Below are positions 2,313-42,823 of a stretch of 64,000 nucleotides of DNA, piece after piece. Source of the DNA: Acidimicrobiales bacterium (GTDB lineage: Bacteria; Actinomycetota; Acidimicrobiia; Acidimicrobiales; SZUA-35); contig JAHDBV010000008.1 of the NCBI GenBank assembly GCA_020630195.1, positions 877-64,876 of the forward strand, written 5' to 3'. The translations under genes and the position numbers were made by a program. Numbering within the stretch: position 1 is the stretch's first letter; every line of letters starts with the position of its first letter. The notes beneath the pieces are model-generated. The model worked only from the letters and a program-made list of their open reading frames with translations. It was not told where the DNA came from and made no database searches.

Positions 2313-4262
2313 ATGACCAGCCCCGCCCCCGCCGACCACGAGTGGCACCACATCCTCGGACCGGACGACCTGCCGGAGGGTCGGGTGACCACGGTGCACG
2401 TCGAGCATCACACCTACGCCGTCACCCACCACGAGGGCCGCTACGGGGTGCTCGACAACCGCTGCCCGCACCAGGGCGGCCCGCTCGGCGAGGGCTCGAT
2501 CGAGAACGGGCATCTGCGGTGCCCGTGGCACGGCTACGACTACGACCCGACCACCGGCGAGCCCCCGCCGCCGTTCGATGACGCGCCCGCCTGCTTCGCC
2601 ACCGAGGTCCGGGACGACGGTGTCTGGGTCGCGCTGCCGACGCCGTCCGCCCCGCCTCGCACGGCCAGCGACGTCGTGGTCGAGACGATGGTCGACTTCG
2701 GTGTCGACACCGTCTTCGGCATGGTCGGGCACTCGAACCTGGGTATGGCCGACGCGATGCGCCACGCCGAGGACCGGGGAGACCTCCGGTTCTTCGGGAT
2801 CCGCCACGAAGGCGCCGCCGCGTTCGCCGCCTCGGCGTACGGGAAGTTGACCGGTCGGCCGGGGGCCTGTTTCGGCATCGCCGGACCGGGCTCCACCAAC
2901 CTGCTGACGGGCCTCTACGACGCGAAGGTCGACGGCGCACCGGTGCTCGCGATCAGCGGCCAGGTCCCGTCGCCTTCACGAGGCCGCGGTGCCTTCCAGG
3001 ACCTCGATCTGTCCGCGGCGTTCAACGACGTGGCGGCGTTCTCCGAGACCCTCTACCCCGCATCGGATCACGCCGAGTTGACGAGCCTGGCCTGCAAGAC
3101 GGCGATCGTCGAGCGGACCGTGGCGCATCTCGTGCTGCCCGACGACGTGCAGACGATCCCGTCGGACGCCGCGGCCGGCACGGCCGTCGGACGCGTCGTC
3201 GAGCGGGCCATGCCGCCGGTCGCCGATGCCCTCCGGGACGCCGCGGCACGTCTGGCCGCCGCCGAGCGGCCCACCTTCATCGTGGGTGCGGGGGCCCGGG
3301 ACGACATGGCCGAGATCATCGAACTCGCCGAACACGTCGGTGCACCGATCGCCACCACGTTCAAGGCCAAGGGGCAGATCAGCGACAACCACCCGCTCGG
3401 CTGTGGCGTGCTCGGCCGCAGCGGCACGCCGGTGGCCAGTTGGTTCATGAACGAGAGCGACCTGCTCGTGGTGTTCGGGGCCTCGTTCTCGAACCACACC
3501 GGTATCAGCTCCTACAAGCCCATCATCCAGATCGACGACGATCCGATGGCGCTCGGCCGATTCCACCCCGTCGAGATCCCCGTGCTCGGCAACGCCGCAC
3601 TCACCGCGGCGGCGCTGCGGGGAGCGGTCCCGGCCGACGGAGGCGTCGATCGGCGGCCCGAGGTGGCCGAACGCTGGGCGATCTGGCGTGAGGAGAAGGC
3701 ACGCCGTCGGGTCGACGACAAGGGGCACGGACTCTCGGCGGCGGCGATCTTCGAGTCGCTCGGCGGGGAGATCGCCGACGACGCCGTGATCTGTGTCGAC
3801 GTCGGCAACAACACCTACAGCTTCGGCCGGTACTTCGAGGTCGCCGACCAGACGGTGCTGATGTCGGGCTACCTCGGATCGATCGGGTTCGGGTTCCCGG
3901 CGGCGATGGGCGCCTGGGCCGCGCTCGGGACCGAACGCCAGATCGTGTCCGTCAGCGGCGACGGCGGCTTCGGGCAGTACGCCATGGAGCTGAGCACCGT
4001 CGCCAAGTACGGCATGAACCTCACCCACGTCGTGCTCGACAACCACGAACTCGGCAAGATCAGCAAGGAACAACGAGACGCCGACTTCGACGTCTGGCAG
4101 ACGAGCCTCCACAACCCCGACTTCGCGTCGATGGCGGAGCTGTTCGGTGTCGACGCGCACCGGGTCACCACCGCGGATGAGCTCGCTCCCGCCCTGCGGG
4201 CCGCCTTCGACCACGTCGGCCCGTCACTCGTCGCCATCCAGCAGGATGTGACCCTCCTCTGA
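2313..4262 (+). CDS. Rieske [2Fe-2S] domain fused to a thiamine-diphosphate enzyme of the pyruvate oxidase / acetolactate synthase family
   Basis: In frame with ORF 2154..4262. The ATG at 2313 is preceded by GGAGAG. The N-terminus carries NRCPHQGGPL...LRCPWHGYDYD (Rieske). The rest shows the TPP-enzyme N, central and C modules: GIRHEGAAAFAASAYGKLTGRPGACFGIAGPGSTNLLTGLYDA... and SVSGDGGFGQYAMEL...VVLDNHELGKI (GDG-x-N TPP-binding motif). Confidence 0.85.
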   Translation: MTSPAPADHEWHHILGPDDLPEGRVTTVHVEHHTYAVTHHEGRYGVLDNRCPHQGGPLGEGSIENGHLRCPWHGYDYDPTTGEPPPPFDDAPACFATEVRDDGVWVALPTPSAPPRTASDVVVETMVDFGVDTVFGMVGHSNLGMADAMRHAEDRGDLRFFGIRHEGAAAFAASAYGKLTGRPGACFGIAGPGSTNLLTGLYDAKVDGAPVLAISGQVPSPSRGRGAFQDLDLSAAFNDVAAFSETLYPASDHAELTSLACKTAIVERTVAHLVLPDDVQTIPSDAAAGTAVGRVVERAMPPVADALRDAAARLAAAERPTFIVGAGARDDMAEIIELAEHVGAPIATTFKAKGQISDNHPLGCGVLGRSGTPVASWFMNESDLLVVFGASFSNHTGISSYKPIIQIDDDPMALGRFHPVEIPVLGNAALTAAALRGAVPADGGVDRRPEVAERWAIWREEKARRRVDDKGHGLSAAAIFESLGGEIADDAVICVDVGNNTYSFGRYFEVADQTVLMSGYLGSIGFGFPAAMGAWAALGTERQIVSVSGDGGFGQYAMELSTVAKYGMNLTHVVLDNHELGKISKEQRDADFDVWQTSLHNPDFASMAELFGVDAHRVTTADELAPALRAAFDHVGPSLVAIQQDVTLL

Positions 4263-4302: not shown

Positions 4303-5025
4303 ATGCCCCTCGTGCCCGACATACCCGCCGCCCTCGTTCCCACGCGGCTCGCGCTGCATCGCCTCGCCACCTACGTCGTGGCGCCAGCCCGTCACGTCGT
4401 CACCGGACGATTCGGTCTCCGGGCCGTCGAGGGTGGCTACGGCACCCCGCCGTTCGAGGGCCGCCGGATCTGGGTGCAGGGCACGACGATCTTCGACGAG
4501 CGGGACGGTGAGGTGCGCAGCGCCCCCGTCACGTCGTTGCAGGCCGCCGCCGACTTCCTCGGCACCGCCATCGACCCGACCACGGCCGCCGAAGGTGACT
4601 CCCCGGCGCTCGGCGACGTCGACGCCGACCTCGGCATCGACCCGGCGTCGTCGGACTATCTCGGGTGGTGGTTCGCCAACGCCTTCGAGGCACTCACGAC
4701 CGTGCGAGGCGACGACGCCTCGGTCGATGCCAGCGAACCCCAGCTCTGGCCGGGGCACTTCGACCCGGCGATCGAGATCGGTGACGAGGACCATCGGGGG
4801 AGCTACGGCGCCTCGCCGGGCGACGACGCGATCGACGAGCCCTATCTCTACCTGTCGTTGTGGTGGCCCGACCGGCTGGGCCTGGACACGGCCGACCCGT
4901 CGTGGAACGCACCGAGCTTCACGGGTCGGGTGCTGCGGGTGTCGGACTTCCCCGCCGACGTCGATCCGGTCACCACGGCCACCACGTTCTGGCGTGACGC
5001 GAGGGACGCCGCCGCGCTCGGGTGA
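4303..5025 (+). CDS. hypothetical protein (no family recognised)
   Basis: 240-aa ORF with normal composition and G/C third positions. It fills the gap between neighbouring genes on the same strand. I saw no recognisable motif. Confidence 0.6.
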   Translation: MPLVPDIPAALVPTRLALHRLATYVVAPARHVVTGRFGLRAVEGGYGTPPFEGRRIWVQGTTIFDERDGEVRSAPVTSLQAAADFLGTAIDPTTAAEGDSPALGDVDADLGIDPASSDYLGWWFANAFEALTTVRGDDASVDASEPQLWPGHFDPAIEIGDEDHRGSYGASPGDDAIDEPYLYLSLWWPDRLGLDTADPSWNAPSFTGRVLRVSDFPADVDPVTTATTFWRDARDAAALG

Positions 5026-5037
5026 GTCGCCGTCGGG

Positions 5038-6066
5038 TCAGGCGGCGTAGGCGGTGACGATCGGCGCGAGCTCGGTCGGGTTCGCCCCGTGCAGGATCAC
5101 GCCGTCGGCCCCGAGATCGAGCTGGCGTCGAACGGCCGCCGCACACTGCTCGGCGGTTCCCCGCGCCGCGGGGGCCAACCACTCGTCGGGGAGCAACGTG
5201 GCGATGTGTTCGAGCTGGGTGGTGTCGGCCTTCGCATCGATCGCGCCCGGGAACGTCGCCACCATCGGATCGGCCCGGAACCGCTCGAGGACCGCCGGAT
5301 CCCATCGGTTGGTCCGAACCATCAGATCGCCGTAGGCCTGCAGGTAGGTCGCGAGGCGGCCCACGGTCTTCTTCAGCCGGAGCGGCTCGGGCAGGTGATC
5401 GCCGATGGTCGCATAACACGACCACACCCGGACCGACGCCGGGTCCCGTCCGGCCCGCTCCGCGGCGTCCTTCACCGTGGCCACACAGCGGGTGAGGGTC
5501 TCGTCGGTGAAGAACGTGTGGAGGATGACGTCGTCGAACGCCCGGCCGGCCAACGCGAGGCTGTTCGGTCCGAACGCGGTCAACCCGAGCGGGATGTCCT
5601 CGTCGAAACCGGGATCCAGACGGAGCACCGGCCACGATCCGGCCGGGCCGTCGTGGCCGACCACGGTCTCCCCACGCCACAGGCGGCGCATGAGCCCCGC
5701 GAAGTCCTCCATCTGGGCGGTGGTGATCCGGCCCATGCCGAACGCGTCCTGCATCCGATCGATGCCGCGGCCGAGACCGAGCGTGAACCGGCCGCCCGTG
5801 AGGAAGTGCATCGTGGTCGCATACGACGCCGTCACGATCGGGTGCCGGGTGTTGTGGTTCGTCGCACCCGTGATGATCCGGAGATCGGTCGAGACGGCGG
5901 CGACGGCACCGCTCAACGTCGCCGCCTCCTTCACGTTGAACCGTTCCGAGATGAAACAGGCACCGAGCCCGAGGGCCTCGGCGTCACGCACCTCGTCGAG
6001 CAGCTCCCGTGGACTCCCCGGCGCACCGGCGAGGGTGTAGAAGCCGAGCTCGTCGTGGCGTGCCAT
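5038..6066 (-). CDS. luciferase-like (LLM class) flavin- or F420-dependent oxidoreductase
   Basis: 342-aa ORF. Sequence resembles the bacterial-luciferase TIM-barrel family: GACFISERFN...GGRFTLGLGRG...LGADGVILHG. Confidence 0.85.
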   Translation of the reverse strand: MARHDELGFYTLAGAPGSPRELLDEVRDAEALGLGACFISERFNVKEAATLSGAVAAVSTDLRIITGATNHNTRHPIVTASYATTMHFLTGGRFTLGLGRGIDRMQDAFGMGRITTAQMEDFAGLMRRLWRGETVVGHDGPAGSWPVLRLDPGFDEDIPLGLTAFGPNSLALAGRAFDDVILHTFFTDETLTRCVATVKDAAERAGRDPASVRVWSCYATIGDHLPEPLRLKKTVGRLATYLQAYGDLMVRTNRWDPAVLERFRADPMVATFPGAIDAKADTTQLEHIATLLPDEWLAPAARGTAEQCAAAVRRQLDLGADGVILHGANPTELAPIVTAYAA

Positions 6067-6126
6067 GACCGAACCCTACGAGACCCGTCGGCGCGGTCTC
6101 GAACCGCCACCGATGGCCTCTCGGCG

Positions 6127-6567
6127 TCACCGGGCGGGTGCCGGCCGCCCGGCGAGTGCACGGATGCGGCTGCGATTGCGCCATAGGTGCACGAACATGA
6201 GCACGATCGCGAGCAGGCCGGTGGCGGTGTGCACGGTCACCCAGATCGCCGCGCTCGACCATTCGAGCCAGATCGGGAAGCCGGTGACGGTGCACACGGC
6301 GGTGAGCGCCCCCAGCACGGCGTTGAGGACGCCGAGCGAGAACTCCCGGTCGTCACGGCCCCGGGAGACGACCCGCCGGATCCAGCTCGCGTTCGACGCG
6401 AGGTGCACGGCGATCACCGGGACGAGCGCGATGCCGATCCAGCTGTGCAGCGTGTAGTCCGGTCCCTCCCGGGTGAGGAACTCGACGATGAAGCCGACGA
6501 ACAGGCCGACATCGACGACGATGCGGATGATCCGGCGGCGTGCGAGTGACTCGAGGCGATCGATCAT
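6127..6567 (-). CDS. small integral membrane protein (about 4 TM helices, conserved His; DUF4405-like)
   Basis: Within ORF 6127..6648. The internal Met (MIDRLESLARRRII...) is followed by four hydrophobic segments. The upstream 27 codons are Arg/Pro rich and look non-coding. Confidence 0.55.
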   Translation of the reverse strand: MIDRLESLARRRIIRIVVDVGLFVGFIVEFLTREGPDYTLHSWIGIALVPVIAVHLASNASWIRRVVSRGRDDREFSLGVLNAVLGALTAVCTVTGFPIWLEWSSAAIWVTVHTATGLLAIVLMFVHLWRNRSRIRALAGRPAPAR

Positions 6568-6739
6568 GGTGGTGACTCCCGTGGGCGACGGTGGTGCCGC
6601 CCGCCGTTGCATCCCACCACGCCGGCGTCGAGGCCACATCGGTGCCACATCAAGATCCGATCAAGTCGCGACATGGCGCCGGCTTGACCCGTGAACGGGA
6701 CTGGCGGACGCTGGTCGCCCACGACGACGGGAGCTCCGC

Positions 6740-7426
6740 ATGCCGCTTCGCCCCCGGGGTGTGAACCACCTCGCCCTCTCCACCACCGACATGAAGGCCC
6801 AGCTCTCGTTCTGGTGCGACGCCCTCGGGTTGCCGCTGAAGGCGCTCTACTGGATGCACGGCGTCGAGGGCGCCCTGCACGGCTTCGTTGAACTCGCCGA
6901 GGACAGCCACGTCGCCTTCGTCCAGCACCCGGACAACACCGACGCCGTCGAGTTCGGGGTGAGCCACGCCGACGGGCCCGGTGGTGGTGTGCGGGGCGGC
7001 ACCATGCAGCACGTCGCCTTCCACGTCGACACGCTCGACGAGGTGCTGACCCTGCGGGACCGGCTCCGCAGCCGTGGTGTGCAGGTGCTCGGACCGATCG
7101 ACCACGGCTTCGTGCAGTCGATCTACTTCGAGGGGCCCGAGGGCCTCAACCTGGAGGTCGCCGCGGGCGCCGGGATCGACGCCGATGCGTGGATCGATCC
7201 GGAGGTCACCGCCCTCTGCGGGATCGACGACACCGAGCTCGCCGCGCTGAAGGAGCCGGCGCCGTTCGAACGACCGGCCGATCCGGTGGCCCAACCGGCC
7301 GAACCCCACCCGACCAATGAGCGGGCCCGCCAGCATCCCGAGCACCACGCCCTGGTGATGGGGCTCGCGGACGAATTCGTCTGGGATCGCCTCAGCGAGA
7401 CCGAACCGCCGGTGGCCCCGGCCTAG
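6740..7426 (+). CDS. VOC (glyoxalase / bleomycin resistance / extradiol dioxygenase) family protein
   Basis: 228-aa ORF with GGGAG RBS-like sequence upstream of the ATG. Shows a VNHLALSTTDM...HVAFHV paired beta-alpha-beta-beta-beta module pattern. Confidence 0.8.
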   Translation: MPLRPRGVNHLALSTTDMKAQLSFWCDALGLPLKALYWMHGVEGALHGFVELAEDSHVAFVQHPDNTDAVEFGVSHADGPGGGVRGGTMQHVAFHVDTLDEVLTLRDRLRSRGVQVLGPIDHGFVQSIYFEGPEGLNLEVAAGAGIDADAWIDPEVTALCGIDDTELAALKEPAPFERPADPVAQPAEPHPTNERARQHPEHHALVMGLADEFVWDRLSETEPPVAPA

Positions 7427-7427
7427 C

Positions 7428-8591
7428 GTGACATCCATGGATCTGGAGGCGCTCGTCGGCGCGGGCTTCGACCTCGACGCGAGCCGATCCCACGCCGCCC
7501 ACGGTCGGTTCTACACCGACCCGGCCGTGCACGAGTTCGAACAGGAGCGGGTCTTCGCCCGGGAGTGGTGCTACGTCGCCCACCGGAGCCAGCTCCCGAA
7601 CCGGGGCGACCATCTGGTGGTCGAACTCGCCGGGCGATCCGTCGTCGTCGTGGCCGACGGTGACGGTCATCGGGCCTTCCACAACGTGTGTCAGCACCGG
7701 GGGCACCAGCTCGTCGCCGAGTCGGGTCACACCCCGAACGTGCTCGTGTGCCCCTACCACGCCTGGAGCTACGCCCTCGACGGCCGTCTGCGCGGCGCGC
7801 CCCACGCCCGTGACGTGCCCGACTTCGATCGGTCGTGTGTCTCATTGACCCCGGTCGGGCTCGACGAGATCGGCGGCTTCCTCTTCGTCAATCTCGACCC
7901 CGATGCCCGTCCGCTGCGAGACGTGGCACCGGGCTTCGAACCCCGCCTGCGCTCGATGGTGGGGGAGAGCGAACACCTCCGCCTCGCGTCGGAGTCCCGC
8001 TTCGGCATCGAGGCCAACTGGAAGGTCGTGACGGAGAACTTCCTCGAGGCGTACCACGTCGAGTTCTCCGGCCCGGCCCACCAGGCACTCGGCAACATCA
8101 TCGACCCGTCGACCTATCGGTTCGAGATCGACGGCCGGGTCATCGAATACACCGCGGGTGGCGGTGCGCCGGAGGTGCTGCCCTACGAGGTGCACGGCAC
8201 CGACGACTTCACGTCGACCGCCGGCGTGCCGTTCCACCAGATCTTCCTCTACCCGAACATGACGTTCTCGGTGTTCCCCGGGACGAACATGGTGTTCGTG
8301 TTCGACATGTCACCGAGCGGCCCCGAGACCACGGCCGAACGCATCCAGTACTTCACCCTCGACGGCCATCTGCAGCGCCCGTCGGACCAGGCCGAGGCCT
8401 TCATCAGCCGGGAGCTCAACCACGAGGACATCGCCCTCGTCGAAGGGGTCCAGCGCGGGCTGCGCTCACCCGGGTATCGGCCGGGCCGGTACATGGTCGA
8501 CGCCGCCGGTGAGGCCGGCTGGGGCGAGCAGTTCGTGCACCACTTCGTGCTCACCCACCTCCGGGCGCTCGGGGTGGTGCCCGAGGCCTGA
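7428..8591 (+). CDS. Rieske non-heme iron oxygenase, alpha (catalytic) subunit
   Basis: Carries CQHRGHQL...CPYHAWSY (Rieske) and ...NFLEAYHVEFSGPAH... (mononuclear iron region). The start is GTG at 7428 or ATG at 7437, one nt after the VOC gene stop. Confidence 0.85.
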   Translation: MTSMDLEALVGAGFDLDASRSHAAHGRFYTDPAVHEFEQERVFAREWCYVAHRSQLPNRGDHLVVELAGRSVVVVADGDGHRAFHNVCQHRGHQLVAESGHTPNVLVCPYHAWSYALDGRLRGAPHARDVPDFDRSCVSLTPVGLDEIGGFLFVNLDPDARPLRDVAPGFEPRLRSMVGESEHLRLASESRFGIEANWKVVTENFLEAYHVEFSGPAHQALGNIIDPSTYRFEIDGRVIEYTAGGGAPEVLPYEVHGTDDFTSTAGVPFHQIFLYPNMTFSVFPGTNMVFVFDMSPSGPETTAERIQYFTLDGHLQRPSDQAEAFISRELNHEDIALVEGVQRGLRSPGYRPGRYMVDAAGEAGWGEQFVHHFVLTHLRALGVVPEA

Positions 8592-17019: not shown

Positions 17020-19503
17020 TCAGCTGCGGGGCCGCTCGTGGTCGGGGTCGTAGATCCCGTGGGCGTGACGGACGGCGGGGGCGTCGACTCCCCATGCGTC
17101 GATCGTGAAGCCGTCCATCCGATCGGCGAAGCGGCCCTCGACATAGCCGAGGCAGACCCGTTCGCCGGTCCGGAAGCCCATCGAGGCCGATGTCACGAAC
17201 CCGGCCAGCTCACCATCGACGCGGATCGGGGCCGACGGTGGCGGATCGCCGGCCGGTCCCGGGGCACCCGAGACGTCGACGGTCCAGGTCCCGTAGCTCC
17301 AGTCGGGCACCCGGTCGGCCAGCGCGGCGGCGGCCGCCCGACCGATGAAGTCGGGCTTGGTGAGATCGACGAACCGCTCGATGCCGACGTCGAACGGGGT
17401 GTACTCGACGCCGAACTCGCTGCCCCAGCCGTGATAGCCCTTCTCGACCCGCATGGCGTTGAGTGCGTAGGAGCCGAAGTCGCGGAGGCCGAGGTCGGCG
17501 CCGGCCTCGTGCAACGCCTCGTAGAGGGCGACGAGATCGCCGTCGTCGACGTGGAGCTCCCAGCCGAGTTCGCCGACGAAGCTCACCCGGAGTGCGGTGC
17601 ACACGACGCCGGCCACGGTGATCTCCCGAACCGACATCCAGGGCGCCGCCTCGCGTGACAGGTCGTCGTCGCTCAGCCGTTCGAGCAGGGTGCGCGACGA
17701 CGGCCCCATGACCATGAGGGTCGACGTGTGCCGGGTGCCGAGGCGGACCTCGACGTCGTCGGCGAGACCCACGTGGCGCTGCAGCCAGTCGAGATCGCGC
17801 TCGCGGGCCGCGGTGGGGCCGAGGAGCAGGAAGTGGTCGTCGGCGAGGCGGGCGATGGTCGCCTCGGTCCACACCGTGCCGTTCGGCCGGAGGAAGTAGG
17901 AGAGTCGGACCCGACCGACACCCGGCAACCGGGTGCACGTCATGCGGTCGAGGAAGGCCGCCGCATCGGGCCCCGAGACCTCGAACCGGGTGAACCCGCC
18001 GTGGTCCATCACCCCGACACCGTCCCGCACGGCTCGGCACTCCTCGGCCACGACGTCGTGCCAGTGCTCGTCCCGGTAGCTGAGGGTCTCGTGGGCGTAC
18101 TCGTCCGAGCCGAACCAGAAGGCCCGCTCCCAGCCGGCGATCTGTCCGAACCGGGCACCCTTCGCGGCGAGGGTGTCGTAGAGCGGGGTCTGCTGCACCG
18201 GGCGGGCCGTGGTCCACATGCGGTGCGGGAACGGGGCGCCGTACTGGTGCTCGTACATCTCCCGGACCCGGGCGTTCGGGTAGCTGTCCCGGCCCGATCC
18301 GGCGGTCGCCCAGGCGCCGAAGCGGCGCGGGTCCCACGGCCAGACGTCCCACTCGGTGTCGCCGCCCGTGATCATCTCGGTGAGCACCTTGCCGGCGGCC
18401 GCGGCGTGGGTGATGCCGATCTGGACACCGACGGCCTGGTACCAACCGTCGACCCCGGCCACCGGTCCGATGAGCGGGTTCATGTCGGGGGTGTAGGTGA
18501 TGGGTCCGTTGACGAACTCGGCGATGCCGACCTCGCCGAGGATCGGGACGTGGGCCATCGCCTGTTCAGCGACCTCGACGATGCCGTCGGTGTCGGCGGC
18601 GAAGAGCGACGAATCGAACACGTCGGGCCGGCCGTTCTCCCAGACCGTGCGGCCCTCGTGGCCGTAGTTGCCGAACAGGAAGCGGTCGTTCTCCTGGCGC
18701 AGGTAGAACATGATCTCCGGGTCCCGGACGAGCGGGAACGGTTCGGTCAGCTCGTCGAGCTGTGGCACCGCGCCGGTGACGAGGTACTGGTGCTCGAGCA
18801 CGGCCAGTGGGGCGTCGATCCCGGCCATGGCGGAGATGTCGGCGCCGTAGAAGCCGGCGGCGTTGATCACGATGTCGGCCTCGATCGTGCCCGGACCCGC
18901 CGAGCTGTCGACATGCACCCGCCAGCGGGCGTCGTCGCCGGGGCCGAGTCGGTCGATGCCGACCACACGGGTGTGGCGTCGCACCGTCGCGCCGAGCGCA
19001 CGTGCCCGCCGAGCGAAGCCCTGGGTCAGTCCACTGGGATCGATGTCGCCTTCGTAGGGGTCGAGCAGGCCGGCGATGACGGTGCCGTCGTCGTCCCAGA
19101 ACGGGTGCATGTCGGCCATCTCGGTGGGCGAGACGATCTTGAGGTCGAACCCGAGGCCGGTGGAGATGGCGACGAGATGATGGAAGTGGTCGAGGCGTTC
19201 GGGGGTGTGCCCGGGCCAGAACGCCTTGGTGTGGCGGTAGGTGATCGGGTCGTCGGGGTCGTCGGCCAGTTCGGAGTAGAGCCGCCACGCGTAGTTTCCG
19301 GCCCGTTGGCCCAGCCACGAGTTGGAGAAGGTCGGCACGTTGCCCGCGGCGTGCCAGGTCGACCCCGAGGTGAGTTCGTGTTTCTCGAGCAGCACCGCAT
19401 CGGTGCGGCCCGCTTCGGCGAGGTGCCAGAGAATCGAGGCGCCGACGGCACCACCGCCGATGACGACGATCTCGTGCCGGGCGTCGGTCGAGGGGGCACT
19501 CAC
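17020..19503 (-). CDS. FAD-dependent oxidase fused to a GcvT-type folate-binding aminomethyltransferase domain (dimethylglycine/sarcosine dehydrogenase family)
   Basis: 827-aa ORF. N-terminal dinucleotide motif VVIGGGAVGAS. The C-terminal half shows the GcvT-like pattern (…GYHGWGSEF…). The GTG start overlaps the MttB stop (GTGA). Confidence 0.9.
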   Translation of the reverse strand: MSAPSTDARHEIVVIGGGAVGASILWHLAEAGRTDAVLLEKHELTSGSTWHAAGNVPTFSNSWLGQRAGNYAWRLYSELADDPDDPITYRHTKAFWPGHTPERLDHFHHLVAISTGLGFDLKIVSPTEMADMHPFWDDDGTVIAGLLDPYEGDIDPSGLTQGFARRARALGATVRRHTRVVGIDRLGPGDDARWRVHVDSSAGPGTIEADIVINAAGFYGADISAMAGIDAPLAVLEHQYLVTGAVPQLDELTEPFPLVRDPEIMFYLRQENDRFLFGNYGHEGRTVWENGRPDVFDSSLFAADTDGIVEVAEQAMAHVPILGEVGIAEFVNGPITYTPDMNPLIGPVAGVDGWYQAVGVQIGITHAAAAGKVLTEMITGGDTEWDVWPWDPRRFGAWATAGSGRDSYPNARVREMYEHQYGAPFPHRMWTTARPVQQTPLYDTLAAKGARFGQIAGWERAFWFGSDEYAHETLSYRDEHWHDVVAEECRAVRDGVGVMDHGGFTRFEVSGPDAAAFLDRMTCTRLPGVGRVRLSYFLRPNGTVWTEATIARLADDHFLLLGPTAARERDLDWLQRHVGLADDVEVRLGTRHTSTLMVMGPSSRTLLERLSDDDLSREAAPWMSVREITVAGVVCTALRVSFVGELGWELHVDDGDLVALYEALHEAGADLGLRDFGSYALNAMRVEKGYHGWGSEFGVEYTPFDVGIERFVDLTKPDFIGRAAAAALADRVPDWSYGTWTVDVSGAPGPAGDPPPSAPIRVDGELAGFVTSASMGFRTGERVCLGYVEGRFADRMDGFTIDAWGVDAPAVRHAHGIYDPDHERPRS

Positions 19504-21002
19504 GTGGATGGCTCCAGATGGATCGGGAAACGGGTGCGGATGGCGGCCTCGGCATCGACGGCGAGGTGGTCGGGTCGGCCGCCGGCGAGGACGTCACGCA
19601 CGCGGGCCGCGGCGAGGTCCCAGAGTTCGGGCGAGCCGGCGGCGACCCATTCGTCGACGGAGCGACGGTCGCCGAGGCCCGGGTAGACGTACTCGGACCG
19701 CATGAGCTCGAGGGTCTGCGCCTGGCCGAGGTAGTGACCGTCGCCGGTGACGACGTCCTCGACGATGGCGAGATCGAGATAGCCGGGATCGACCTCGACG
19801 CCGCGCACGCTGCGCAGGATCGCGCCGCACATGTCGTCGTCGATGACGAGGCTCTCGGGGCTCGCCACCATGATCGAGCCGAGCATGCCGACCGAGAGCT
19901 GGACCATGTCGGCCCCGGCCTGGGCCGACAGCGCGACCGTGTAGCCCTTCTCGTAGCCGGCCTGGCTGTCGGCGGTCTTGGCGTCGGTGATGCCCGCCGA
20001 CACGGCGTGGGGCAGGTCGAGATCGCGCAGCAGCTGGGCGGCGGCGGCGCTCGTGACCGCCGCTTCGCCACTGCCGCCGGTCATCGCCCCGCTGCGCAGA
20101 TCGGAGATGAACGGCATGAACGCGTGGATGCAGGGATGGCCAGGCCGGATGGCATCGGCGAGCACGACCCCGGCGAGGATCTCGGCGAGACCCTGGGCCA
20201 ACGATCCGGCGAGCGACGGCGGGCTGGTCGCACCGGCCTGGCCGGCCGAACAGGTCTGGATCACCATGCCGCGCTCGATCGCCCGCTCCATGATCTCGCA
20301 CCCCTCCGGCGAGAAGCGCAGTGGCGGCACCACGTGGACGACGACGGCCATCGAGAACGGTTGGCGGGCGAAGGCTCCCTCCGAGCCGAGGGCGACGTCG
20401 AAGAGGTCGACGACGGGGTCGACGGTGTCGACCGAGGTGAAGCTCACCCCGGTCGGCTTGGAGGTGGCGGCGGTGATGGCGAAGGCCGTGTTGAGGTCGA
20501 GTTCGAGCGGGTCGACGACGTCGCGGGCGACGAGTGTACGGAGCCCGTAGTGGATGTTCGGGCTCGTATCGAGCACCCGCATCATCGACCAGAGGTCACC
20601 GAGCTCGGAGTCCCGGAAGCCGCCGGTCTCGGCGTCGAGCACACGGACCGCTGCGCCGCCCGTGCCGACGTGCACATGGCCACCGCCGACGGTGAGCCCG
20701 CGATCGGCGGTGAATCCGGGCAGGTCGACGCGGGACGGGGCTCGTTCGAGCGCGGCCTCGACGACGGCACGGGGGAACAGGAGTCGACCGTCGTGGCGTT
20801 CGGTGGCGCCGGCGGCGAGCAGGCGGTCCCGGGCGGCCGGGGGAGCGTCGGCCATGCCGATCGTCGCGAGGATGTCGAAGGCGTGGTCGAGGACGGCGTC
20901 TCGGTGCGGATCCGACAGCGGGCGATACGCACCGCCCCTGGGCGGGGCCGTGATCGGCGGCGGCCCGGCCGGTTCGCGACGCCGGCGTCCCGCGCGGCTC
21001 AA
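19500..21002 (-). CDS. MttB-superfamily methyltransferase, non-pyrrolysine member (quaternary-amine/trimethylamine methyltransferase family)
   Basis: 500-aa uninterrupted ORF, apparently with a TTG start. It has the basic N-terminus (SRAGRRRRE...) and overall pattern of the MttB family (…FDILATIGM…VGTGGAAV…SAGQAGATSP…AGADMV…). There is no in-frame TAG. Confidence 0.85.
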   Translation of the reverse strand: MSRAGRRRREPAGPPPITAPPRGGAYRPLSDPHRDAVLDHAFDILATIGMADAPPAARDRLLAAGATERHDGRLLFPRAVVEAALERAPSRVDLPGFTADRGLTVGGGHVHVGTGGAAVRVLDAETGGFRDSELGDLWSMMRVLDTSPNIHYGLRTLVARDVVDPLELDLNTAFAITAATSKPTGVSFTSVDTVDPVVDLFDVALGSEGAFARQPFSMAVVVHVVPPLRFSPEGCEIMERAIERGMVIQTCSAGQAGATSPPSLAGSLAQGLAEILAGVVLADAIRPGHPCIHAFMPFISDLRSGAMTGGSGEAAVTSAAAAQLLRDLDLPHAVSAGITDAKTADSQAGYEKGYTVALSAQAGADMVQLSVGMLGSIMVASPESLVIDDDMCGAILRSVRGVEVDPGYLDLAIVEDVVTGDGHYLGQAQTLELMRSEYVYPGLGDRRSVDEWVAAGSPELWDLAAARVRDVLAGGRPDHLAVDAEAAIRTRFPIHLEPST

Positions 21003-21143
21003 CGCTCGGTCCTCTGTCGGATGGGCGGCTGCCGGTCGGAGCCGGGGTGGGAGCTGACCAAGACGGATGATCCTGCCACGGTCACCCGAGCGACGGCGGG
21101 TTTCGGTACGCCGGTCATCACACTGCGGAAGCCCGGCGCCGAC

Positions 21144-22079
21144 TCAGGCGAGGTACGGCGTCGCCGGGTTGATCAGGCCCGGTCGCAGCTCGTATGCCTC
21201 GGTCGGGCCCCACGTGCCGGCGTCGGGGTGGCTGCCCCGGACCTCGTCGATCTCGAGGACGAGCGTCCGGGTCGAGTACTCGTCGGCGGCCGGTGACGCC
21301 TCGACGCGGCCCCGGCCGGTCAGATGCAGGGTGCGACCCGTCGTGGGGTCGAACGTCATGACGCCGAGCCGGTCGTCGAGCAGCAGGTTGCCGAGCGTCT
21401 GGAACATGCCGTTGCCGGTGTAGTCGGGCATCGAGATGGTCCGGTCGTCGACGACCGTGACGAACCCTGGCGGGCCGCCCCGGTGGGTCGGATCGACCCC
21501 GTGGCGTTCGTGGAAGCTCGCGAGGAACACCATGTCGGTCGCGGCGAGCTGATCGCAGTCGTCGGCCGAGAGCCGCTCGTCGCGACGCCCCGGCCGGCCA
21601 GCGGCGCTCGACGGTCGTTCCGGGTCGTGGTCGCGCTTCGCGATGTACTTGTTGCAGAGGCCGAAGTTGCGGTGCATGCGGTAGGTGATGCCGCCGCGGG
21701 CGTCGACCTCGGCCATGCCGAGCGACTTCGCCCTCCGCCGACGCGACGGCTCGAAGTAGAGGACGCCGAGGTGGCCGGTGGCGGCGATCGCCGGGATCAG
21801 CGGGTCTCCGTCGACCCGTGCCGTCGAGATGCCCACCGTCGTCGGGTCGAGCACGGTGAACAGCTCGCCGGCCCGCCCGAAGAACGGGGAGGCCCACGCT
21901 CTGCCGTCGGCGTCGATGGAGGCGCCGACGGAGAAGGTGCGTCCCGACACGAAGCGGACCTCGTTGTCGCTCAGCTCGGGCCGGAACGCCTCGTCGACCA
22001 TGCGATCGAAGGCGACCGTGTCGACCCCGGACTCGGCCTGGATCCGGGCTTCACCCTCGTGGAAGTTCCGCAGCGTCAT
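21144..22079 (-). CDS. pyridoxamine 5'-phosphate oxidase-like FMN-binding split-barrel protein
   Basis: 311-aa ORF. Shows FHEGEARIQAESGV...MVFLASFHERHGVDPTHRGGPPGFV...YTGNGMFQTLGNL, the PNPOx-like pattern. Confidence 0.7.
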   Translation of the reverse strand: MTLRNFHEGEARIQAESGVDTVAFDRMVDEAFRPELSDNEVRFVSGRTFSVGASIDADGRAWASPFFGRAGELFTVLDPTTVGISTARVDGDPLIPAIAATGHLGVLYFEPSRRRRAKSLGMAEVDARGGITYRMHRNFGLCNKYIAKRDHDPERPSSAAGRPGRRDERLSADDCDQLAATDMVFLASFHERHGVDPTHRGGPPGFVTVVDDRTISMPDYTGNGMFQTLGNLLLDDRLGVMTFDPTTGRTLHLTGRGRVEASPAADEYSTRTLVLEIDEVRGSHPDAGTWGPTEAYELRPGLINPATPYLA

Positions 22080-22111
22080 GGTCCGACGCTACGTCGGCGT
22101 GGTCGGTGCCG

Positions 22112-23032
22112 TCAGTCGTCGCCCAGCACGACGGCGGCGATCGCGACGTCCTGGGCGGCGATGCCGGTGAGATCGGCGACGGTGCGTTGCCCCGCGGTGG
22201 TCCGACCCCGCGCGGTGCCCGCCAACACGGCGCCGAGTTCGACCACCGCCGCGGTCGGCGGCAGCATCGAGCACTCGCCGTGATCACGACACTGGACCAC
22301 GCTGTCGGCCACGACGAGCTCGGCGGCGGCCAGCAGATCGGGGGAGAGTTCGTGTTTGCCCGGGGCGTCGGCTCCGACCGCCGTGATGTGGGTGCCCGGG
22401 CGGATCATGGCGGCGTCGAGCAGCGGCTCGGTGGCGGCGGTGACGGTGGCGATCACGTCGGCCTCGGCGCAGGCCGAGTCGAGATCGGGGGCGACCGAGG
22501 CATCGTTGCGGGCCGCCACCTCGGCGGCCCGGGAGGCCGAGCGACCCCACACCCGCACCTCGTCGAGGTGGGGGAGGAGGGCACGGTGCCAGCGGATCTG
22601 CTGGTCGGCCTGGATGCCGGTGCCGACCACGAGCAGGCGGGTGGCGTCGGGCCGGGCGAGTGTCCGGGAGGCGACGGCGCCACCGATGCCGGTGCGCACG
22701 TCGGTCAGGGTCATCTCGTCGTGCAGCACCGCCCGCACCTCACCCGTGCGGGCCGACAGCACGATCGAGGCGCCGTTGTTCACGGGCGGACCGGTCGGGT
22801 CGTCGCGATTGCCCGGGAATCCGGTGGCGATCTTCACGACGAACACGTCGTCTCCCCGTCGGTGCCCGATCTTCACGTGGCAGTCACCGCCCACAGCGTC
22901 GAAGACGAGATGCCCCACCGGCGGGAGCTGGACCTCGCCGCGGCTCGCCGCCACGTAGGCGGCCTCGACGGCGGCGGCCGCCCGGTCCGGGTCGAGTCGT
23001 CGGGCCAGCTCGTCCCGGTCGAGCACGATCAC
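22112..23032 (-). CDS. ornithine cyclodeaminase / mu-crystallin family protein
   Basis: 306-aa ORF. Shows ...LTDVRTGIGGAVASRTLA...LLVVGTGIQA (Rossmann)...ITAVGADAPGKHEL. The GTG start overlaps the upstream stop (GTGA). Confidence 0.85.
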   Translation of the reverse strand: MIVLDRDELARRLDPDRAAAAVEAAYVAASRGEVQLPPVGHLVFDAVGGDCHVKIGHRRGDDVFVVKIATGFPGNRDDPTGPPVNNGASIVLSARTGEVRAVLHDEMTLTDVRTGIGGAVASRTLARPDATRLLVVGTGIQADQQIRWHRALLPHLDEVRVWGRSASRAAEVAARNDASVAPDLDSACAEADVIATVTAATEPLLDAAMIRPGTHITAVGADAPGKHELSPDLLAAAELVVADSVVQCRDHGECSMLPPTAAVVELGAVLAGTARGRTTAGQRTVADLTGIAAQDVAIAAVVLGDD

Positions 23033-24171
23033 GAGATCGTTCCCGCGTGGGCCTCGAGGTGGGCGGTCATCGCAGCGAGTCCCTCATCGAGGCCCCGGCG
23101 GCCGTAGCCGAGCCGGAACCGGTCGGTGATCGTCGGGCCGACGTCGGAGCGGTAGATCGACGACGGCAACAGCAGGACCCCGGCCTCCTCGACCAGGCGG
23201 CGACAGAACTCCTCGACACCGTCGGCGCCGAGATACCGGGGGAACCCCATGCAGGAGCCGTCGGGGCGGACCCACTCGAACCGGTCGGCGAAGCGAGCGA
23301 AGAAGGCGTCCCACTTCGGCAGGTTCTCGTCGATGATCCGGTTGTTGCGGGTGATGATCTCGTCCTTGTGCTCGAGGGCGATGATCGCCAGGCGTTCACT
23401 CGGGCCCGAGTTGCAGATCGAGGTGTAGTGCTTGAGCTTCTCCATCCGCGCCAGCAGCTCCCGGTCCTTCGAGGCGATCCAGCCGATGCGCAGCCCCGGC
23501 AGGCCCATCGACTTCGACGTGACACCGAGCGAGAGCCCACGTTCGTAGACATCCGCGACGAACGGCAGATGCTCGGTCCCGGTCGGGCCGAGTCCATGGA
23601 AGATCTCGTCGTGCAGCAGGTGGATGCCGTGGTGGCGGCAGAGCTCGACGAGGGCGTCGTAGCGATCCCTCGGCAGGATCGTGCCGGTCGGGTTGTGGGG
23701 GAAGTTGATCGTGAGGAGCCGGGTCGACGGGCGGATCTCGGCCGCGACGCGATCGATGTCGAGCGACCAGCCGTCGTCGGGGTCGAGTGGCACACCACTC
23801 ACCGAGCCGAGTGCGCCGGGCAACGACTCGTGGCTCTGGTAGTTGGGGGTGACGACGATCGCATGGGCGTCGGGGTCCATGAGCACGGCGTTGGTGGCGA
23901 AGATGCCCTCACTCGCCCCGGCGAAGCACAGGACCTCACCCGGCTCGATGTCGTCGTAGGTGGCGGCGATCGCCTCCCGCAGGTCGGGTGCGCCCCAGGT
24001 CTCGGTGTAGCCGAGCCACATGTGCTCGAAGGCGTGGCGCTGCTCGTCGGTGGCGAGGGCGAGCAGGTCGGCGAGCGACATCGCCTCGGCGTCGGAGGCG
24101 GTGAGGTGGTGCTCGGCGGCGAACTCCCACCGCGCGAAGTGGGTCTCGAGACGGAACTCGGGGAGCTGCAT
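23029..24171 (-). CDS. PLP-dependent aminotransferase, class I/II fold
   Basis: 380-aa ORF. Shows ...NFPHNPTG... and ...SKSMGLPGLRIGW (PLP lysine region). Confidence 0.85.
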   Translation of the reverse strand: MQLPEFRLETHFARWEFAAEHHLTASDAEAMSLADLLALATDEQRHAFEHMWLGYTETWGAPDLREAIAATYDDIEPGEVLCFAGASEGIFATNAVLMDPDAHAIVVTPNYQSHESLPGALGSVSGVPLDPDDGWSLDIDRVAAEIRPSTRLLTINFPHNPTGTILPRDRYDALVELCRHHGIHLLHDEIFHGLGPTGTEHLPFVADVYERGLSLGVTSKSMGLPGLRIGWIASKDRELLARMEKLKHYTSICNSGPSERLAIIALEHKDEIITRNNRIIDENLPKWDAFFARFADRFEWVRPDGSCMGFPRYLGADGVEEFCRRLVEEAGVLLLPSSIYRSDVGPTITDRFRLGYGRRGLDEGLAAMTAHLEAHAGTIS

Positions 24172-24269
24172 GGCGGCGCAGCCTAGGAGGGCACTGGTGG
24201 CCGCTTCACGAGACCTTCACGGTCATCTCGGTACACGTGACACCGATGGAGATCCGAGGAGCACACCCC

Positions 24270-39227: not shown

Positions 39228-41111
39228 TCACTCCGGGACGGTCACCACGTCGTCGTCGGCATCCCGATCCGGGGCGTAGAGGCGGGCGAGTTCGTCGGCC
39301 CGGTGGAGCTGGGCGGCCCGCTGGTTGACATAGCCCTTCTCGGTGATCTCGTTCCGTGTCGGATCGGGTGGCGAGTCGAGCAGCAGGAAGCGACGGATGG
39401 CGGTTGACGAGGCCGGGTTGGCCCGGTTGTGGGCGGCGAGGCCCTCGGCGATGGCGGCCCGCACGGCAGGGGATCGAGCGGGGTCGGCGTCACCGGCCAG
39501 GTCCGCACACGCGGCGGGGTTCGGCCACAGCAGTGCCGTCACCTCGGCCTCGTTCAGGCCGCAGATCACGGCGTCGCGCACGAGCGGTGAGGCGGCGGCG
39601 ACCACCCGGCTGCGGAGTGCGCCCGACTGCACCCAGGTGCCACTGACGAGCTTGAAGTCCTCCGCCACCCGACCGGCGAAGCAGAGGCCCCGCTGTCGGT
39701 CGTCCGGGTCCCGGAACCGGACCGCGTCGCCCATGAGGAAGAAGCCCTCCTCGTCGAACGCCGCCTCGGTGATCGCCGGGTCGCCCAGGTAGCCGGGAGT
39801 GATGCCCGGCCCCCGGGGTCGGAGCTCGTAGCGGCCGTCACCGAGTGGCAAGAGCTTCACCTCCGAGCCCGGACCGGGCAGCCCGAGGACGTCGTGGTCC
39901 TCCGTGGGCCACCAGCGGTTGAGGCCGACGGAGACCTCCGTCGACAGCAGGCTCGTCGTGAGCAGGATCGGGCCGCCGGTGTGGGCCCGGGCCAGGGCCT
40001 GGAGCCGATCGGCGACACTCGTCGGCATGGCCGCGGCGCCGAAGCCGAAGGATCGGCACGACCCGAAGAACGACGCCGCGAGCTCGTCGTCGGCCTCGAG
40101 GGCGTCGACGAGCATGCCCCACCCGATCGGCGAACCGCTCGCCACCGTCGGACGGATGGCGGCCAGGTTCTCGATCGTCGCGTCGTACTGGCCGGGCAGT
40201 GGGCGTCCCCGGTCGAGATGGATCGTGCCGCCGTCGTGGATCAGCATGTTCTGGCGCATCACTCCGGCGGCGACGTGGCTCCAGGGCATCCAGTCGAGCA
40301 CCCGCACGTCGCCGTCGTCACGTTCATCGGCGAGCGCGCACATGGCGCCGAGGAAGCCGCGGTGCATCCGGTGCGTCTGGATGACGCCCTTCGGCACCCC
40401 GGTGGAGCCCGAGGTGAAGATGTACTTCGTCACGGTGTCGGGGGTGATGGCCCCGATCGACGCATCGACATCGTCGGTGGGCTCGGTGGTGAGCAGCTCG
40501 TGGAGGGCGACAGCGCCGTCGTGGCCGCCGGCGTCGGTGATGAGCGTGGCATCGTCGAGGCGCCACGAGACCGCCGAGTCGTTCGCCACCGCCTCGAGCC
40601 CGGCACGGTGGAGCGCCGGGTCGGCCGCGTAGACGAAGGCGGGAGCGACGAGGTCGAGCACGGTCGACAGCTTCCCGAACGCCCCCGGCACCGTGGAGTA
40701 CGGAACGCTCACCGGGCAGACGGGCACCCGTGCCATCTGCGCCCCCCACGAGAGCACGAAATGGTCGAGGGACCGAGCGGACAGCACCGCGAGCGTGCGG
40801 TCGGGTCCGCCATCGTGATCGAGCAGCCACTGCGCCACCCGACGGGCCCGATCGACGGCGTCGCCATAGGTGAGGTCGTGCCACACGCCGGCCTCGTCCT
40901 GCTCGGAGAGCAGCAGTCGGTCGGGATGGCGCGCCGCCCGGTCGACCAGCATGGTCACCATGTCGTCCGGGACGTCGAGTGGCGCGATCGGGCAGGTCAG
41001 CACGAGCGTGCCGTCGTCCCGCTCGACGACGTCGACGACGGGTTCACGAGGAATGGTGCGCAACGGAGGCCTCCGGGTGGGGTGCGCCGACGATCCCACG
41101 CTCTTTGACAT
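39228..41111 (-). CDS. AMP-binding acyl-CoA synthetase (long, feruloyl-CoA-synthase-like subgroup)
   Basis: ATG at 41111 in frame with ORF 39228..42314. Carries the motif YIFTSGSTGVPKGV. The 400 upstream codons are antisense to the P450 gene and compositionally junk. Confidence 0.8.
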   Translation of the reverse strand: MSKSVGSSAHPTRRPPLRTIPREPVVDVVERDDGTLVLTCPIAPLDVPDDMVTMLVDRAARHPDRLLLSEQDEAGVWHDLTYGDAVDRARRVAQWLLDHDGGPDRTLAVLSARSLDHFVLSWGAQMARVPVCPVSVPYSTVPGAFGKLSTVLDLVAPAFVYAADPALHRAGLEAVANDSAVSWRLDDATLITDAGGHDGAVALHELLTTEPTDDVDASIGAITPDTVTKYIFTSGSTGVPKGVIQTHRMHRGFLGAMCALADERDDGDVRVLDWMPWSHVAAGVMRQNMLIHDGGTIHLDRGRPLPGQYDATIENLAAIRPTVASGSPIGWGMLVDALEADDELAASFFGSCRSFGFGAAAMPTSVADRLQALARAHTGGPILLTTSLLSTEVSVGLNRWWPTEDHDVLGLPGPGSEVKLLPLGDGRYELRPRGPGITPGYLGDPAITEAAFDEEGFFLMGDAVRFRDPDDRQRGLCFAGRVAEDFKLVSGTWVQSGALRSRVVAAASPLVRDAVICGLNEAEVTALLWPNPAACADLAGDADPARSPAVRAAIAEGLAAHNRANPASSTAIRRFLLLDSPPDPTRNEITEKGYVNQRAAQLHRADELARLYAPDRDADDDVVTVPE

Positions 41112-41165
41112 GGTTCCAAAAGCGGGGGAGTCTCGGCCCGCAGCCTTCCGCCTTCCGGAGCCGAG

Positions 41166-42377: not shown

Positions 42378-42400
42378 TCCGCTCCACCTAGGGTCACCTC

Positions 42401-42781
42401 ATGGCACCAGAACACCCGTCGTTCCCGCTCCAGGCCCATCTCGGCTTCGAGGTCGAAGGCGACGGCGGGCGCGGGTCGGCCCGGCTCGTGCTCGACGAGC
42501 GGCACCACAACCCGAACGGCGTGGCCCATGGCGCCGTGGCGTTCACGATGATGGACACCGCCATGGGCGCAGCCGTGATGTCGCTGCTCGACGACGGCGT
42601 GTTCTGCGCCACGATCGAGATGCAGACGCGCTTCATCCGGGCGGCCTCGGGTGGCGAACTCCGGGCCGAGGCCACGGTCGTGCACCCCGGACGCCGGGTC
42701 ATGCACCTCGAGGCGCGCACGGTCGACGCCGACGGCCGCCTCGTGGCGTCCGCGACGGCGAGCTTCGCCGTGTTGGCCTGA
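42401..42781 (+). CDS. PaaI-family hot-dog thioesterase
   Basis: 126-aa ORF. NPNGVAHGAVAFTMMDTAMG is typical of the PaaI/4HBT class. Confidence 0.8.
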   Translation: MAPEHPSFPLQAHLGFEVEGDGGRGSARLVLDERHHNPNGVAHGAVAFTMMDTAMGAAVMSLLDDGVFCATIEMQTRFIRAASGGELRAEATVVHPGRRVMHLEARTVDADGRLVASATASFAVLA

Positions 42782-42784
42782 GCG

Positions 42785-42823
42785 ATCGGGGGTGCGGGGC
42801 CGGCGAGGGGCCCCGACCGATCA
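42785..42823. terminator. GC-rich stem-loop between convergent genes
   Basis: Inner stem GGGGCC (42797-42802) pairs with GGCCCC (42810-42815). Outer stem GATCGG (42785-42790) pairs with CCGATC (42818-42823). The structure overlaps the stop of the CYP153-like gene. Confidence 0.35.

Follow-up and report, generated by a model that had tools for sequence, protein, structure and literature searches.

The gene at positions 2,313 to 4,262 of the present window (by which we mean the whole stretch of 64,000 nucleotides from an Acidimicrobiales bacterium) encodes a protein of 649 amino acids (aa) in which a Rieske [2Fe-2S] domain is fused to the N-terminus of a pyruvate oxidase (POX)-like enzyme dependent on thiamine diphosphate (TPP). 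The fusion is common and conserved, and it is unstudied in the literature that we found. We propose, with a probability of roughly 55%, that it is a soluble 2-oxoacid dehydrogenase of the POX branch, in which electrons would travel from TPP to flavin adenine dinucleotide (FAD), from there to the enzyme's own Rieske domain and finally to client proteins. The best available support for the N-terminal domain as the electron outlet comes from the relatives of the TPP enzyme, among which the C-terminal tail is lost and three types of electron carrier are found at the same position.

The fused gene, its conservation and its spread

The earlier note on this DNA, made from the letters alone, had described one open reading frame (ORF) of 649 aa combining a complete Rieske motif with the three modules of a POX-family enzyme. 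This description is confirmed both by the translation, which runs without internal stops, and by a Pfam scan, in which the Rieske domain and TPP_enzyme_N, M and C were all matched. The three TPP-enzyme domains score far above their cut-offs, the Rieske domain reaches 57.2 bits against a cut-off of 20.3 (PF00355, E 1.6e-15), and the boxes CPHQGGPL and CPWHGYDY as well as the GDGG...N loop lie within the ORF where the note had placed them. As these four domains were all that the Pfam scan gave, no PFOR or OFOR domain was found in the fusion. The gene is laid out as follows.

2300 to 2305, + strand: GGAGAG, a motif resembling a ribosome-binding site, 7 nt before the ATG at 2313 (read from the sequence)
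2313 to 4262, + strand: gene of the Rieske::POX-like TPP enzyme, 649 aa, coordinates including the stop codon
2340 to 2561, + strand: Rieske [2Fe-2S] domain of ferredoxin type, aa 10-83, ligands C51, H53, C70 and H73 (Pfam PF00355)
2661 to 3014, + strand: TPP_enzyme_N (PYR) domain, aa 117-234, with the cofactor-activating Glu166, equivalent to PoxB Glu50 (Pfam PF02776, E 2e-35)
3234 to 3617, + strand: TPP_enzyme_M domain, aa 308-435, with G325-x-G327-A-R and R369 (Pfam PF00205, E 3e-31)
3798 to 4235, + strand: TPP_enzyme_C (PP) domain, aa 496-641, with GDGG...N577, K582 and E586 (Pfam PF02775, E 1e-32)

TPP_enzyme_M is the FAD-binding middle domain in POX and PoxB. As the start codon, ATG 2313 is favoured over the upstream GTG 2154, because GGAGAG stands 7 nt upstream of it and the orthologue alignments from the genome loci begin at residues 1-12. 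At the other end, the chain stops 8 residues past the TPP_enzyme_C domain, in keeping with the note's remark that the C-terminus follows directly on the TPP module. When the protein is aligned to E. coli PoxB, the match goes no further than residue 525 of the 572, which leaves it without the PoxB C-terminal tail; the motif GQAKGFS.YML that marks the tails of tailed relatives is absent as well.

A word-indexed search over 5.8 billion proteins returned at least 8,000 candidates, the best 120 of which are 636-674 aa long, share 67-80% identity with the query over 97-100% of its length and all contain the Rieske and the three TPP domains. A scan with one genome per species gave 159 confirmed loci, and the 80 that were retained show 55-70% identity across residues ~1-649. 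Altogether, hundreds of genomes from at least nine phyla, complete ones included, have a full-length orthologue with 55-80% identity, a distribution that the note had left to be checked. The loci belong to Acidimicrobiia and other Actinomycetota, Myxococcota, Alphaproteobacteria, Planctomycetota, Gemmatimonadota, Nitrospirales, Bacteroidota, Gammaproteobacteria (Thiodiazotropha symbionts, Woeseiaceae), Cyanobacteria (Leptolyngbyaceae) and Acidobacteriota, the last represented, among others, by the cultured Sulfidibacter corallicola M133. In the phylum to which the window belongs, sampled by 301 genomes from 199 genera, the fusion is patchy (13 of the 301 genomes and 13 of the 199 genera), and the other genomes sampled from the same order are all without it. 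The source genome holds a single copy, together with three ordinary TPP paralogues that have no Rieske domain. One genome of the phylum sample carries two copies (G109:C76:34517-37433 and G109:C4:93819-96766), which are 69% and 68% identical to the query.

The note had conceded that a frameshift or a mis-assembly might have joined two separate genes. Since the fusion is uninterrupted in the 120 best matches, in the 80 loci and in 13 of the 301 phylum genomes, there is no frameshift or mis-join. With the same architecture in hundreds of independent assemblies, complete genomes included, we rejected an artefact, the likelihood of which is negligible. We found no study of a Rieske or rubredoxin fusion to a pyruvate oxidase, a TPP enzyme or a glutamate synthase in the literature, and no solved structure in the PDB, by sequence or by fold, spans a Rieske domain and a TPP body. 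This agrees with the note, whose author knew of no characterised example, yet the architecture is very common in sequence databases, where it bears generic names such as 'thiamine pyrophosphate-binding protein' and 'Rieske 2Fe-2S domain-containing protein'.

Conservation was counted in an alignment of 50 fusion orthologues from many phyla, the equivalences to PoxB and to LpPOX of Lactobacillus plantarum being taken from a separate alignment. All four Rieske ligands are invariant, which settles the note's concern that they might not be conserved among orthologues. Equally invariant are E166, aligned to the TPP-activating Glu (E50) of PoxB; F228 and Q229, the FQ pair common to POX, PoxB and ALS; and R369 and E586, the equivalents of LpPOX R264 and E483, which we take to be active-site residues of that enzyme. 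In the TPP/Mg motif G549, D550 and N577 are invariant and G551 nearly so. An AlphaFold2 (AF2) model built from the same 50-orthologue alignment has a mean predicted local distance difference score (pLDDT) of 90.4 and a predicted template-modelling score (pTM) of 0.88. Its inter-domain linker reaches a pLDDT of 90-94, so that the Rieske domain is predicted to be docked, with no loose tether.

N-terminal metal domains and C-terminal tails among the relatives of the TPP body

Whether it is compared by sequence or by fold, the TPP body has its best solved relatives in PoxB, LpPOX and Corynebacterium glutamicum PQO, none of which spans residues 1-116. The best NCBIfam matches are pyruvate oxidase, then pyruvate dehydrogenase and PoxB, with the ALS models following after. 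With E. coli PoxB, C. glutamicum PQO and Staphylococcus aureus CidC the fusion shares the three-domain TPP/FAD fold; Foldseek gives template-modelling scores of 0.92 for 3EYA, a PoxB form without the tail, and of 0.82-0.91 for the PQO structures 9EV3-6. It has the activating Glu, the FQ pair and the GDG..N motif in common with PoxB, as it presumably also has oxidative decarboxylation with a flavin exit. It differs in being only ~28% identical (290 bits by the PoxB model against a cut-off of 792), in lacking the C-terminal helix for lipid activation and membrane binding, in having Lys for Phe465, and in its extra N-terminal Rieske domain, on account of which the acceptor is presumably a protein and not membrane quinone. 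LpPOX, which forms acetyl phosphate and H2O2, is the best Foldseek match by E-value (1POX/4FEE), NF006377 being the best family match, and its R264 and E483 are kept as R369 and E586; it nevertheless has no Fe-S domain, passes electrons to O2, has F479 where the fusion has Lys, and possesses a C-terminal region past residue ~526 that is absent from the fusion. The middle-domain motifs GxGAR, TTFKAKG and IQID.DP..LG resemble those of both LpPOX and PoxB.

The TPP body alone (aa 112-649) was searched against 1.84 billion cluster representatives, and the nearest full-length clusters were scanned with Pfam, which gave the following N-terminal modules.

P0121, 68% identity: Rieske
P0122 (873 aa), 56% identity: chain of four clusters, Fer4_19 [4Fe-4S], two zf-CDGSH and Rieske
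P0123, 52% identity: Rieske
P0124, P0132, P0139, P0143 and P0144, 48-35% identity: rubredoxin
P0134 and P0136, 41% and 38% identity: no N-terminal module (bare)

All eight fused clusters (8/8) finish at most 8 residues past the PP domain and have no C-terminal tail, whereas the chains of the POX/PoxB-like clusters from the same search continue for another 24-64 aa at the C-terminus and show the motif GQAKGFS.YML there. One of these tailed clusters, P0149, exceeds the NCBIfam pyruvate-oxidase cut-off (954 against 742). In a maximum-likelihood tree of 47 TPP bodies from which the N-terminal domains had been removed, four Rieske rows fall together (support 87 by the Shimodaira-Hasegawa-like approximate likelihood-ratio test, SH-aLRT) and form a clade with two rubredoxin rows (100), which is sister (93) to three more rubredoxin rows and two bare rows. 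The group so formed is tail-less, and the tailed proteins make up a separate group, in which 14 of the 15 rows have the tail. To judge from these comparisons, the fused clade lies nearer to POX than to ALS, and in it the loss of the tail coincides with the gain of a one-electron metal domain, three carrier types having come to occupy one position.

Residues 558-568 of PoxB form a C-terminal helix that binds lipid, serves as a gate to the active site and brings the enzyme into position for ubiquinone reduction, and the tails of PQO and CidC act similarly (PMC7245740). The Rieske domain of the fusion may have taken over the outlet role that this lipid- and quinone-binding tail plays in PoxB, PQO and CidC. 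Its boxes, C51-P-H53 and C70-P-W-H73, are read from the sequence as being without the extra disulfide cysteines of bc1-type Rieske proteins, and its nearest solved relatives in the PDB, when it is taken alone, are the soluble ferredoxins RFESD, T4moC, NDO ferredoxin and CarAc. Together these two features suggest a low-potential carrier of ferredoxin type, and there is also a marginal match to the soluble Rieske ferredoxin model PF22543 (29.1 bits against a cut-off of 28.4). The same CxH...CxxH ligands, again with no extra disulfide Cys, are found in the soluble ferredoxins T4moC, NDO ferredoxin, BphF and CarAc and in mammalian RFESD. The ferredoxins of oxygenase systems, however, shuttle between an NADH reductase and the oxygenase, whereas the Rieske domain considered here is covalently joined to its would-be reducing enzyme.

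Taken together, the proposed route would run as follows. Given the family placement, TPP would be the site at which a 2-oxoacid is oxidatively decarboxylated, and the hydroxyalkyl-TPP intermediate would give its two electrons to the bound flavin, as in POX and PoxB. As the pattern of domain swapping and tail loss suggests, the electrons would then go out one by one through the low-potential Rieske domain of the fusion, and the reduced Rieske domain would hand them to client proteins with matching Fe-S entry domains. Partner proteins, and not quinone or oxygen, are the probable recipients. The substrate may well be pyruvate or a close analogue; the conservation of the equivalents of LpPOX R264 and E483 at 55-80% identity across phyla points, weakly, to a small central 2-oxoacid of this kind. 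The overall function would be that of an oxygen-compatible analogue of PFOR with its ferredoxin attached. The likeness to PFOR and OFOR concerns the proposed function only, namely TPP-dependent decarboxylation of a 2-oxoacid with one-electron transfer to Fe-S carriers; PFOR has an unrelated domain organisation, no flavin, [4Fe-4S] clusters and CoA, and is mostly oxygen-sensitive.

Two further observations concern the TPP body and its relatives. Between the middle and PP domains lies a helix, ERWAIWREEK, in which W455, W458, R459, E461, K462 and R465 do not vary among the 50 orthologues; of the relatives, the two nearest rubredoxin-fused clusters have the helix as well and more distant ones do not. 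A part for it in docking or relay is no more than a guess. In addition, clusters P0141, P0148, P0152, P0167, P0183 and P0186 (1,079-1,188 aa) contain a whole POX-like TPP enzyme duplicated in tandem in one polypeptide. These relatives of ~1,100 aa had been considered as Rosetta-stone fusions, and were rejected as such, being merely tandem TPP enzymes.

Candidate client proteins and competing explanations

The neighbourhood of the fusion was compared by calling ORFs in 81 loci, clustering them by all-against-all BLASTP and tabulating gene order. The genes of the window that bear on this comparison are listed here.

3 to 1052, - strand: 5' part of a Rieske::GltS-like enzyme with [3Fe-4S] and flavin mononucleotide (FMN), running off the window's left end; the full gene (536-561 aa) is G000:C169:243-1928 on the same contig
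4303 to 5025, + strand: gene of an uncharacterised family, 240 aa, directly downstream of the TPP gene in the same orientation
7428 to 8591 and 44741 to 45976: two Rieske oxygenase alpha subunits
41109 to 42377 and 42821 to 44203: two P450s

The commonest conserved neighbour is a protein of ~540 aa with a Rieske and a Glu_synthase (FMN) domain, which adjoins the TPP fusion in 36 of the 81 loci; in 31 of them its gene comes immediately before that of the fusion, in the same orientation and with a median gap of 64 nt. In Sulfidibacter corallicola M133 (locus L045) it lies directly upstream, and in the window it is located two genes upstream of the fusion and divergent from it. Many loci with no adjacent copy have truncated flanks, and 11 of the 24 genomes in which the two genes are not adjacent hold a full-length copy elsewhere. 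An orthologue matches the GltS FMN domain PF01645 with an E-value of 2.6e-88, and the Pfam matches are confined to the Rieske domain and this FMN region, which weaker matches overlap. The Rieske ligands are kept in 32 of 33 members, and a C-x5-C-x4-C motif (Cys450/456/461), which we take to be the [3Fe-4S] site of glutamate synthases, is invariant among all 33. The protein thus shares the FMN domain and this motif with ferredoxin-dependent glutamate synthase and differs from it in having no glutamine-amidotransferase or GXGXG C-terminal domain and in carrying an N-terminal Rieske domain of its own. The single exception as to ligands is an Acidimicrobiales locus (L006:8164-9924, + strand), where CDGSH-type motifs (C.CGRSKNQPFCDGSH) replace the Rieske domain at the N-terminus; in the partner enzyme, too, one Fe-S entry module can thus stand in for another.

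In the phylum sample a full-length Rieske::GltS-like gene is present in four of the 301 genomes, three of which also have the TPP fusion, itself present in 13 of the 301 (Fisher p 2.5e-4, uncorrected for phylogeny). As the co-occurrence is three of four from one side and three of 13 from the other, the dependence between the two appears to be stronger on the side of the GltS-like enzyme than on that of the TPP fusion. We regard this Rieske-fused, rarely CDGSH-fused, [3Fe-4S]/FMN enzyme as the commonest putative client. Between the two Rieske fusions of the window, at 1018-2103 on the - strand, there is a gene for a 361-aa protein with two SnoaL-like domains, a homologue of which stands near the fusion in one other locus (L041).

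Another candidate client, in some phyla, is a membrane protein with a Ferric_reduct transmembrane region and a C-terminal Rieske domain, which was found near the fusion in eight of the 81 loci, all outside Actinomycetota (among them L082:12297-13397, L043 at ~14.4-16.3 kb, L031, L076, L084, L061 and L063). It is accompanied by two unknown proteins, one Cys-rich and of ~255 aa and the other of ~166 aa, and its loci usually hold the TPP fusion and the GltS-like enzyme together. Its Rieske domain is 49% identical to that of the fusion, whereas the GltS-fused Rieske domain of the source genome is only 32% identical to it.

The gene at 4303-5025 starts 40 nt past the TPP gene, with GGAG ahead of it and no terminator between. 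Simple scans, which are uninformative in a genome of 70% GC, gave neither a sigma-70-like promoter nor an intervening terminator. Its product joins a family of neighbours of 240-290 aa (hhalign probability 99.3%, E 9e-21) that adjoins the fusion in 29 of the 81 loci. In the phylum sample the family occurs in 10 of the 13 fusion genomes against 47 of the 288 others (p 5e-6) and is adjacent to the fusion in six of the 13; with 57 of the 301 genomes it is broader in distribution than the fusion. It is marked by the motifs WP(G/H)HFD and GD..EPY.Y; the invariant residues include H19, P150, D154, G173, D174 and Y181, and H152 is near-invariant. The AF2 model of the window's protein is good (pLDDT 90.7, pTM 0.89), and the family has no match in Pfam, NCBIfam, PDB sequences or PDB folds (best fold E 0.12). 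In the phylum-sample genome that holds the fusion twice, a gene of this family comes after both copies, and one of the two matches contains an in-frame TGA.

Several of our results speak against a flavin-to-Rieske route of this kind. At the position of PoxB F465 and LpPOX F479, a Phe that promotes electron transfer from TPP to FAD, the fusion has K582, and this Lys is kept without exception in the 50 orthologues. Farther out among the fused relatives the residue is Met, Glu or Asn, and a Phe-to-Lys change at 582 was consequently dropped as a signature of the clade, not being universal. The POX and PoxB models of NCBIfam score far under their curated cut-offs (NF006377, 361.5 against 742; NF006591 for PoxB, 289.7 against 792; TIGR02720, 288.2 against 637.85), and FAD binding is something that we infer from family placement and motif similarity only. 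Since the ALS models likewise stay below their cut-offs (TIGR00118, 279.2 against 538.35; NF006187, 281.1 against 509), the fusion, with its sub-cut-off scores, its missing Phe and no tail, is outside every curated POX, PoxB or ALS equivalog. As to the clients, 10 of the 13 fusion-bearing genomes of the phylum sample have no Rieske::GltS-like enzyme, so that this client is facultative; the source genome has no homologue of the Ferric_reduct::Rieske protein or of its two companions; and the proposed model assigns no part to the 4303-5025 family, whose gene is the one most often adjacent in this phylum.

Some of these points have been considered in favour of another reading, by which the TPP body works without redox chemistry, as a carboligase or lyase (ALS-, Gcl- or HACL-like) whose flavin is vestigial, and the Rieske domain is no electron outlet but a sensor of redox state, O2 or NO or a structural element. 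The electron-transfer Phe of POX and PoxB is replaced by Lys, the scores lie under every curated family cut-off, and ALS does retain FAD without redox use. Nevertheless, we consider this explanation very doubtful: one-electron carriers of three types, including the four-cluster chain of P0122, stand at the same position and look wire-like, not sensor-like, the clade is nearer to POX than to ALS, and the conserved neighbour is also an Fe-S/flavin redox enzyme. It is likewise quite unlikely that the fusion acts as a 2-oxoacid-driven reductase and ferredoxin in one for the local Rieske oxygenases or P450s. The window does encode the alpha subunits of two Rieske oxygenases as well as two P450s, neither a ferredoxin nor a ferredoxin reductase was seen among the window ORFs scanned, and the Rieske domain resembles the oxygenase-system ferredoxins T4moC, NDO ferredoxin and CarAc. 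On the other hand, the nearest oxygenase gene is 3 kb off, past genes on the opposite strand, and actinobacterial oxygenases commonly use redox partners encoded elsewhere. Moreover, homologues of the window's Rieske oxygenases and P450s, like those of its LLM, VOC, SGL, DUF4405 and tandem-SnoaL genes, stand near the fusion in only 0-2 of the 80 other loci. We therefore rejected the local oxygenases, P450s, LLM, VOC and SGL genes as conserved partners and regard such clients, as far as comparison tells, as a local coincidence. The earlier note's suggestion thus divides: the Rieske domain as a built-in acceptor or wire gains support from comparison (domain swap, tail loss and kinship with ferredoxins), which is evidence from sequence, whereas delivery to the local oxygenases or P450s finds no support in the other loci.

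A rather unlikely alternative is that the two Rieske fusions are dehydrogenases working in series, the GltS-like enzyme oxidising an amino acid or amine to a 2-oxoacid and the TPP enzyme decarboxylating it, with a common acceptor, e.g., a membrane cytochrome b or the Ferric_reduct::Rieske protein, leading to the respiratory chain. It accords with the fact that neighbours in an operon often catalyse consecutive steps, with the same kind of N-terminal carrier on both enzymes, with the eight loci in which the Ferric_reduct::Rieske protein co-occurs, usually with both, and with the reversible oxidation of glutamate by GltS-type FMN domains in N-methylglutamate synthase. It accords less well with the limitation of the membrane protein to eight of the 81 loci and its absence from the source genome, with the 10 of 13 phylum-sample genomes in which the TPP fusion occurs without the GltS-like enzyme, and with the reductive physiology of the known GltS FMN/[3Fe-4S] modules. 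Because the co-occurrence is asymmetric, because the oxidative chemistry of POX enzymes is irreversible and because the physiology of GltS is reductive, we favour the TPP fusion as donor and the GltS-like enzyme as one acceptor.

Beyond the route of electrons from TPP to client proteins proposed for this one enzyme, we put forward, tentatively, a wider possibility. The Rieske-, rubredoxin- and CDGSH-fused, tail-less POX-like enzymes might represent an unrecognised class of flavin/TPP 2-oxoacid:iron-sulfur-protein oxidoreductases, which would be an oxygen-compatible counterpart of PFOR with the carrier built in and would wire 2-oxoacid oxidation directly into clients with matching Fe-S entry domains, without NAD(P)H or free ferredoxin. 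The clients would include the GltS-like enzyme, for a reductive amination driven by pyruvate, and, in some phyla, the Ferric_reduct::Rieske protein, for transmembrane electron export, with the 4303-5025 family as a dedicated component. To our knowledge, enzymes of the POX family pass their electrons to O2 or to membrane quinones, and a multi-phylum subfamily with its own Fe-S outlet would, if true, add a third type of acceptor. In aerobes, where PFOR is fragile, it would also point to a way in which pyruvate-type substrates can supply low-potential electrons bound to protein. The linkage to the Rieske-fused GltS-like enzyme would then amount to a concrete system of two proteins that could be rebuilt in vitro, and functions might be given to two large families that now bear generic names only.

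Other genes in the window

The surroundings of the oxygenase and P450 genes (5038-8591 and 41109-45976) are rich in catabolic genes and hold, besides the oxygenases and P450s themselves, genes for a luciferase-like monooxygenase (LLM), a DUF4405 membrane protein and a protein of the VOC/glyoxalase fold. A run of genes on the - strand at 17020-24216 suggests the catabolism of methylated amines or betaine: it encodes a DAO + GCV_T protein of ~830 aa (similar to dimethylglycine and sarcosine dehydrogenases), an MttB-family methyltransferase, a PNPOx-like protein, an ornithine cyclodeaminase-like protein and an aminotransferase. At 49044-49832 (+ strand) an ORF of 262 aa matches only positions 2-234 of the 375 of the Ni_insertion (LarC-like) model and may be a split or truncated gene. 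Elsewhere, the window encodes three PhyH-type dioxygenases and two family III CoA-transferases.

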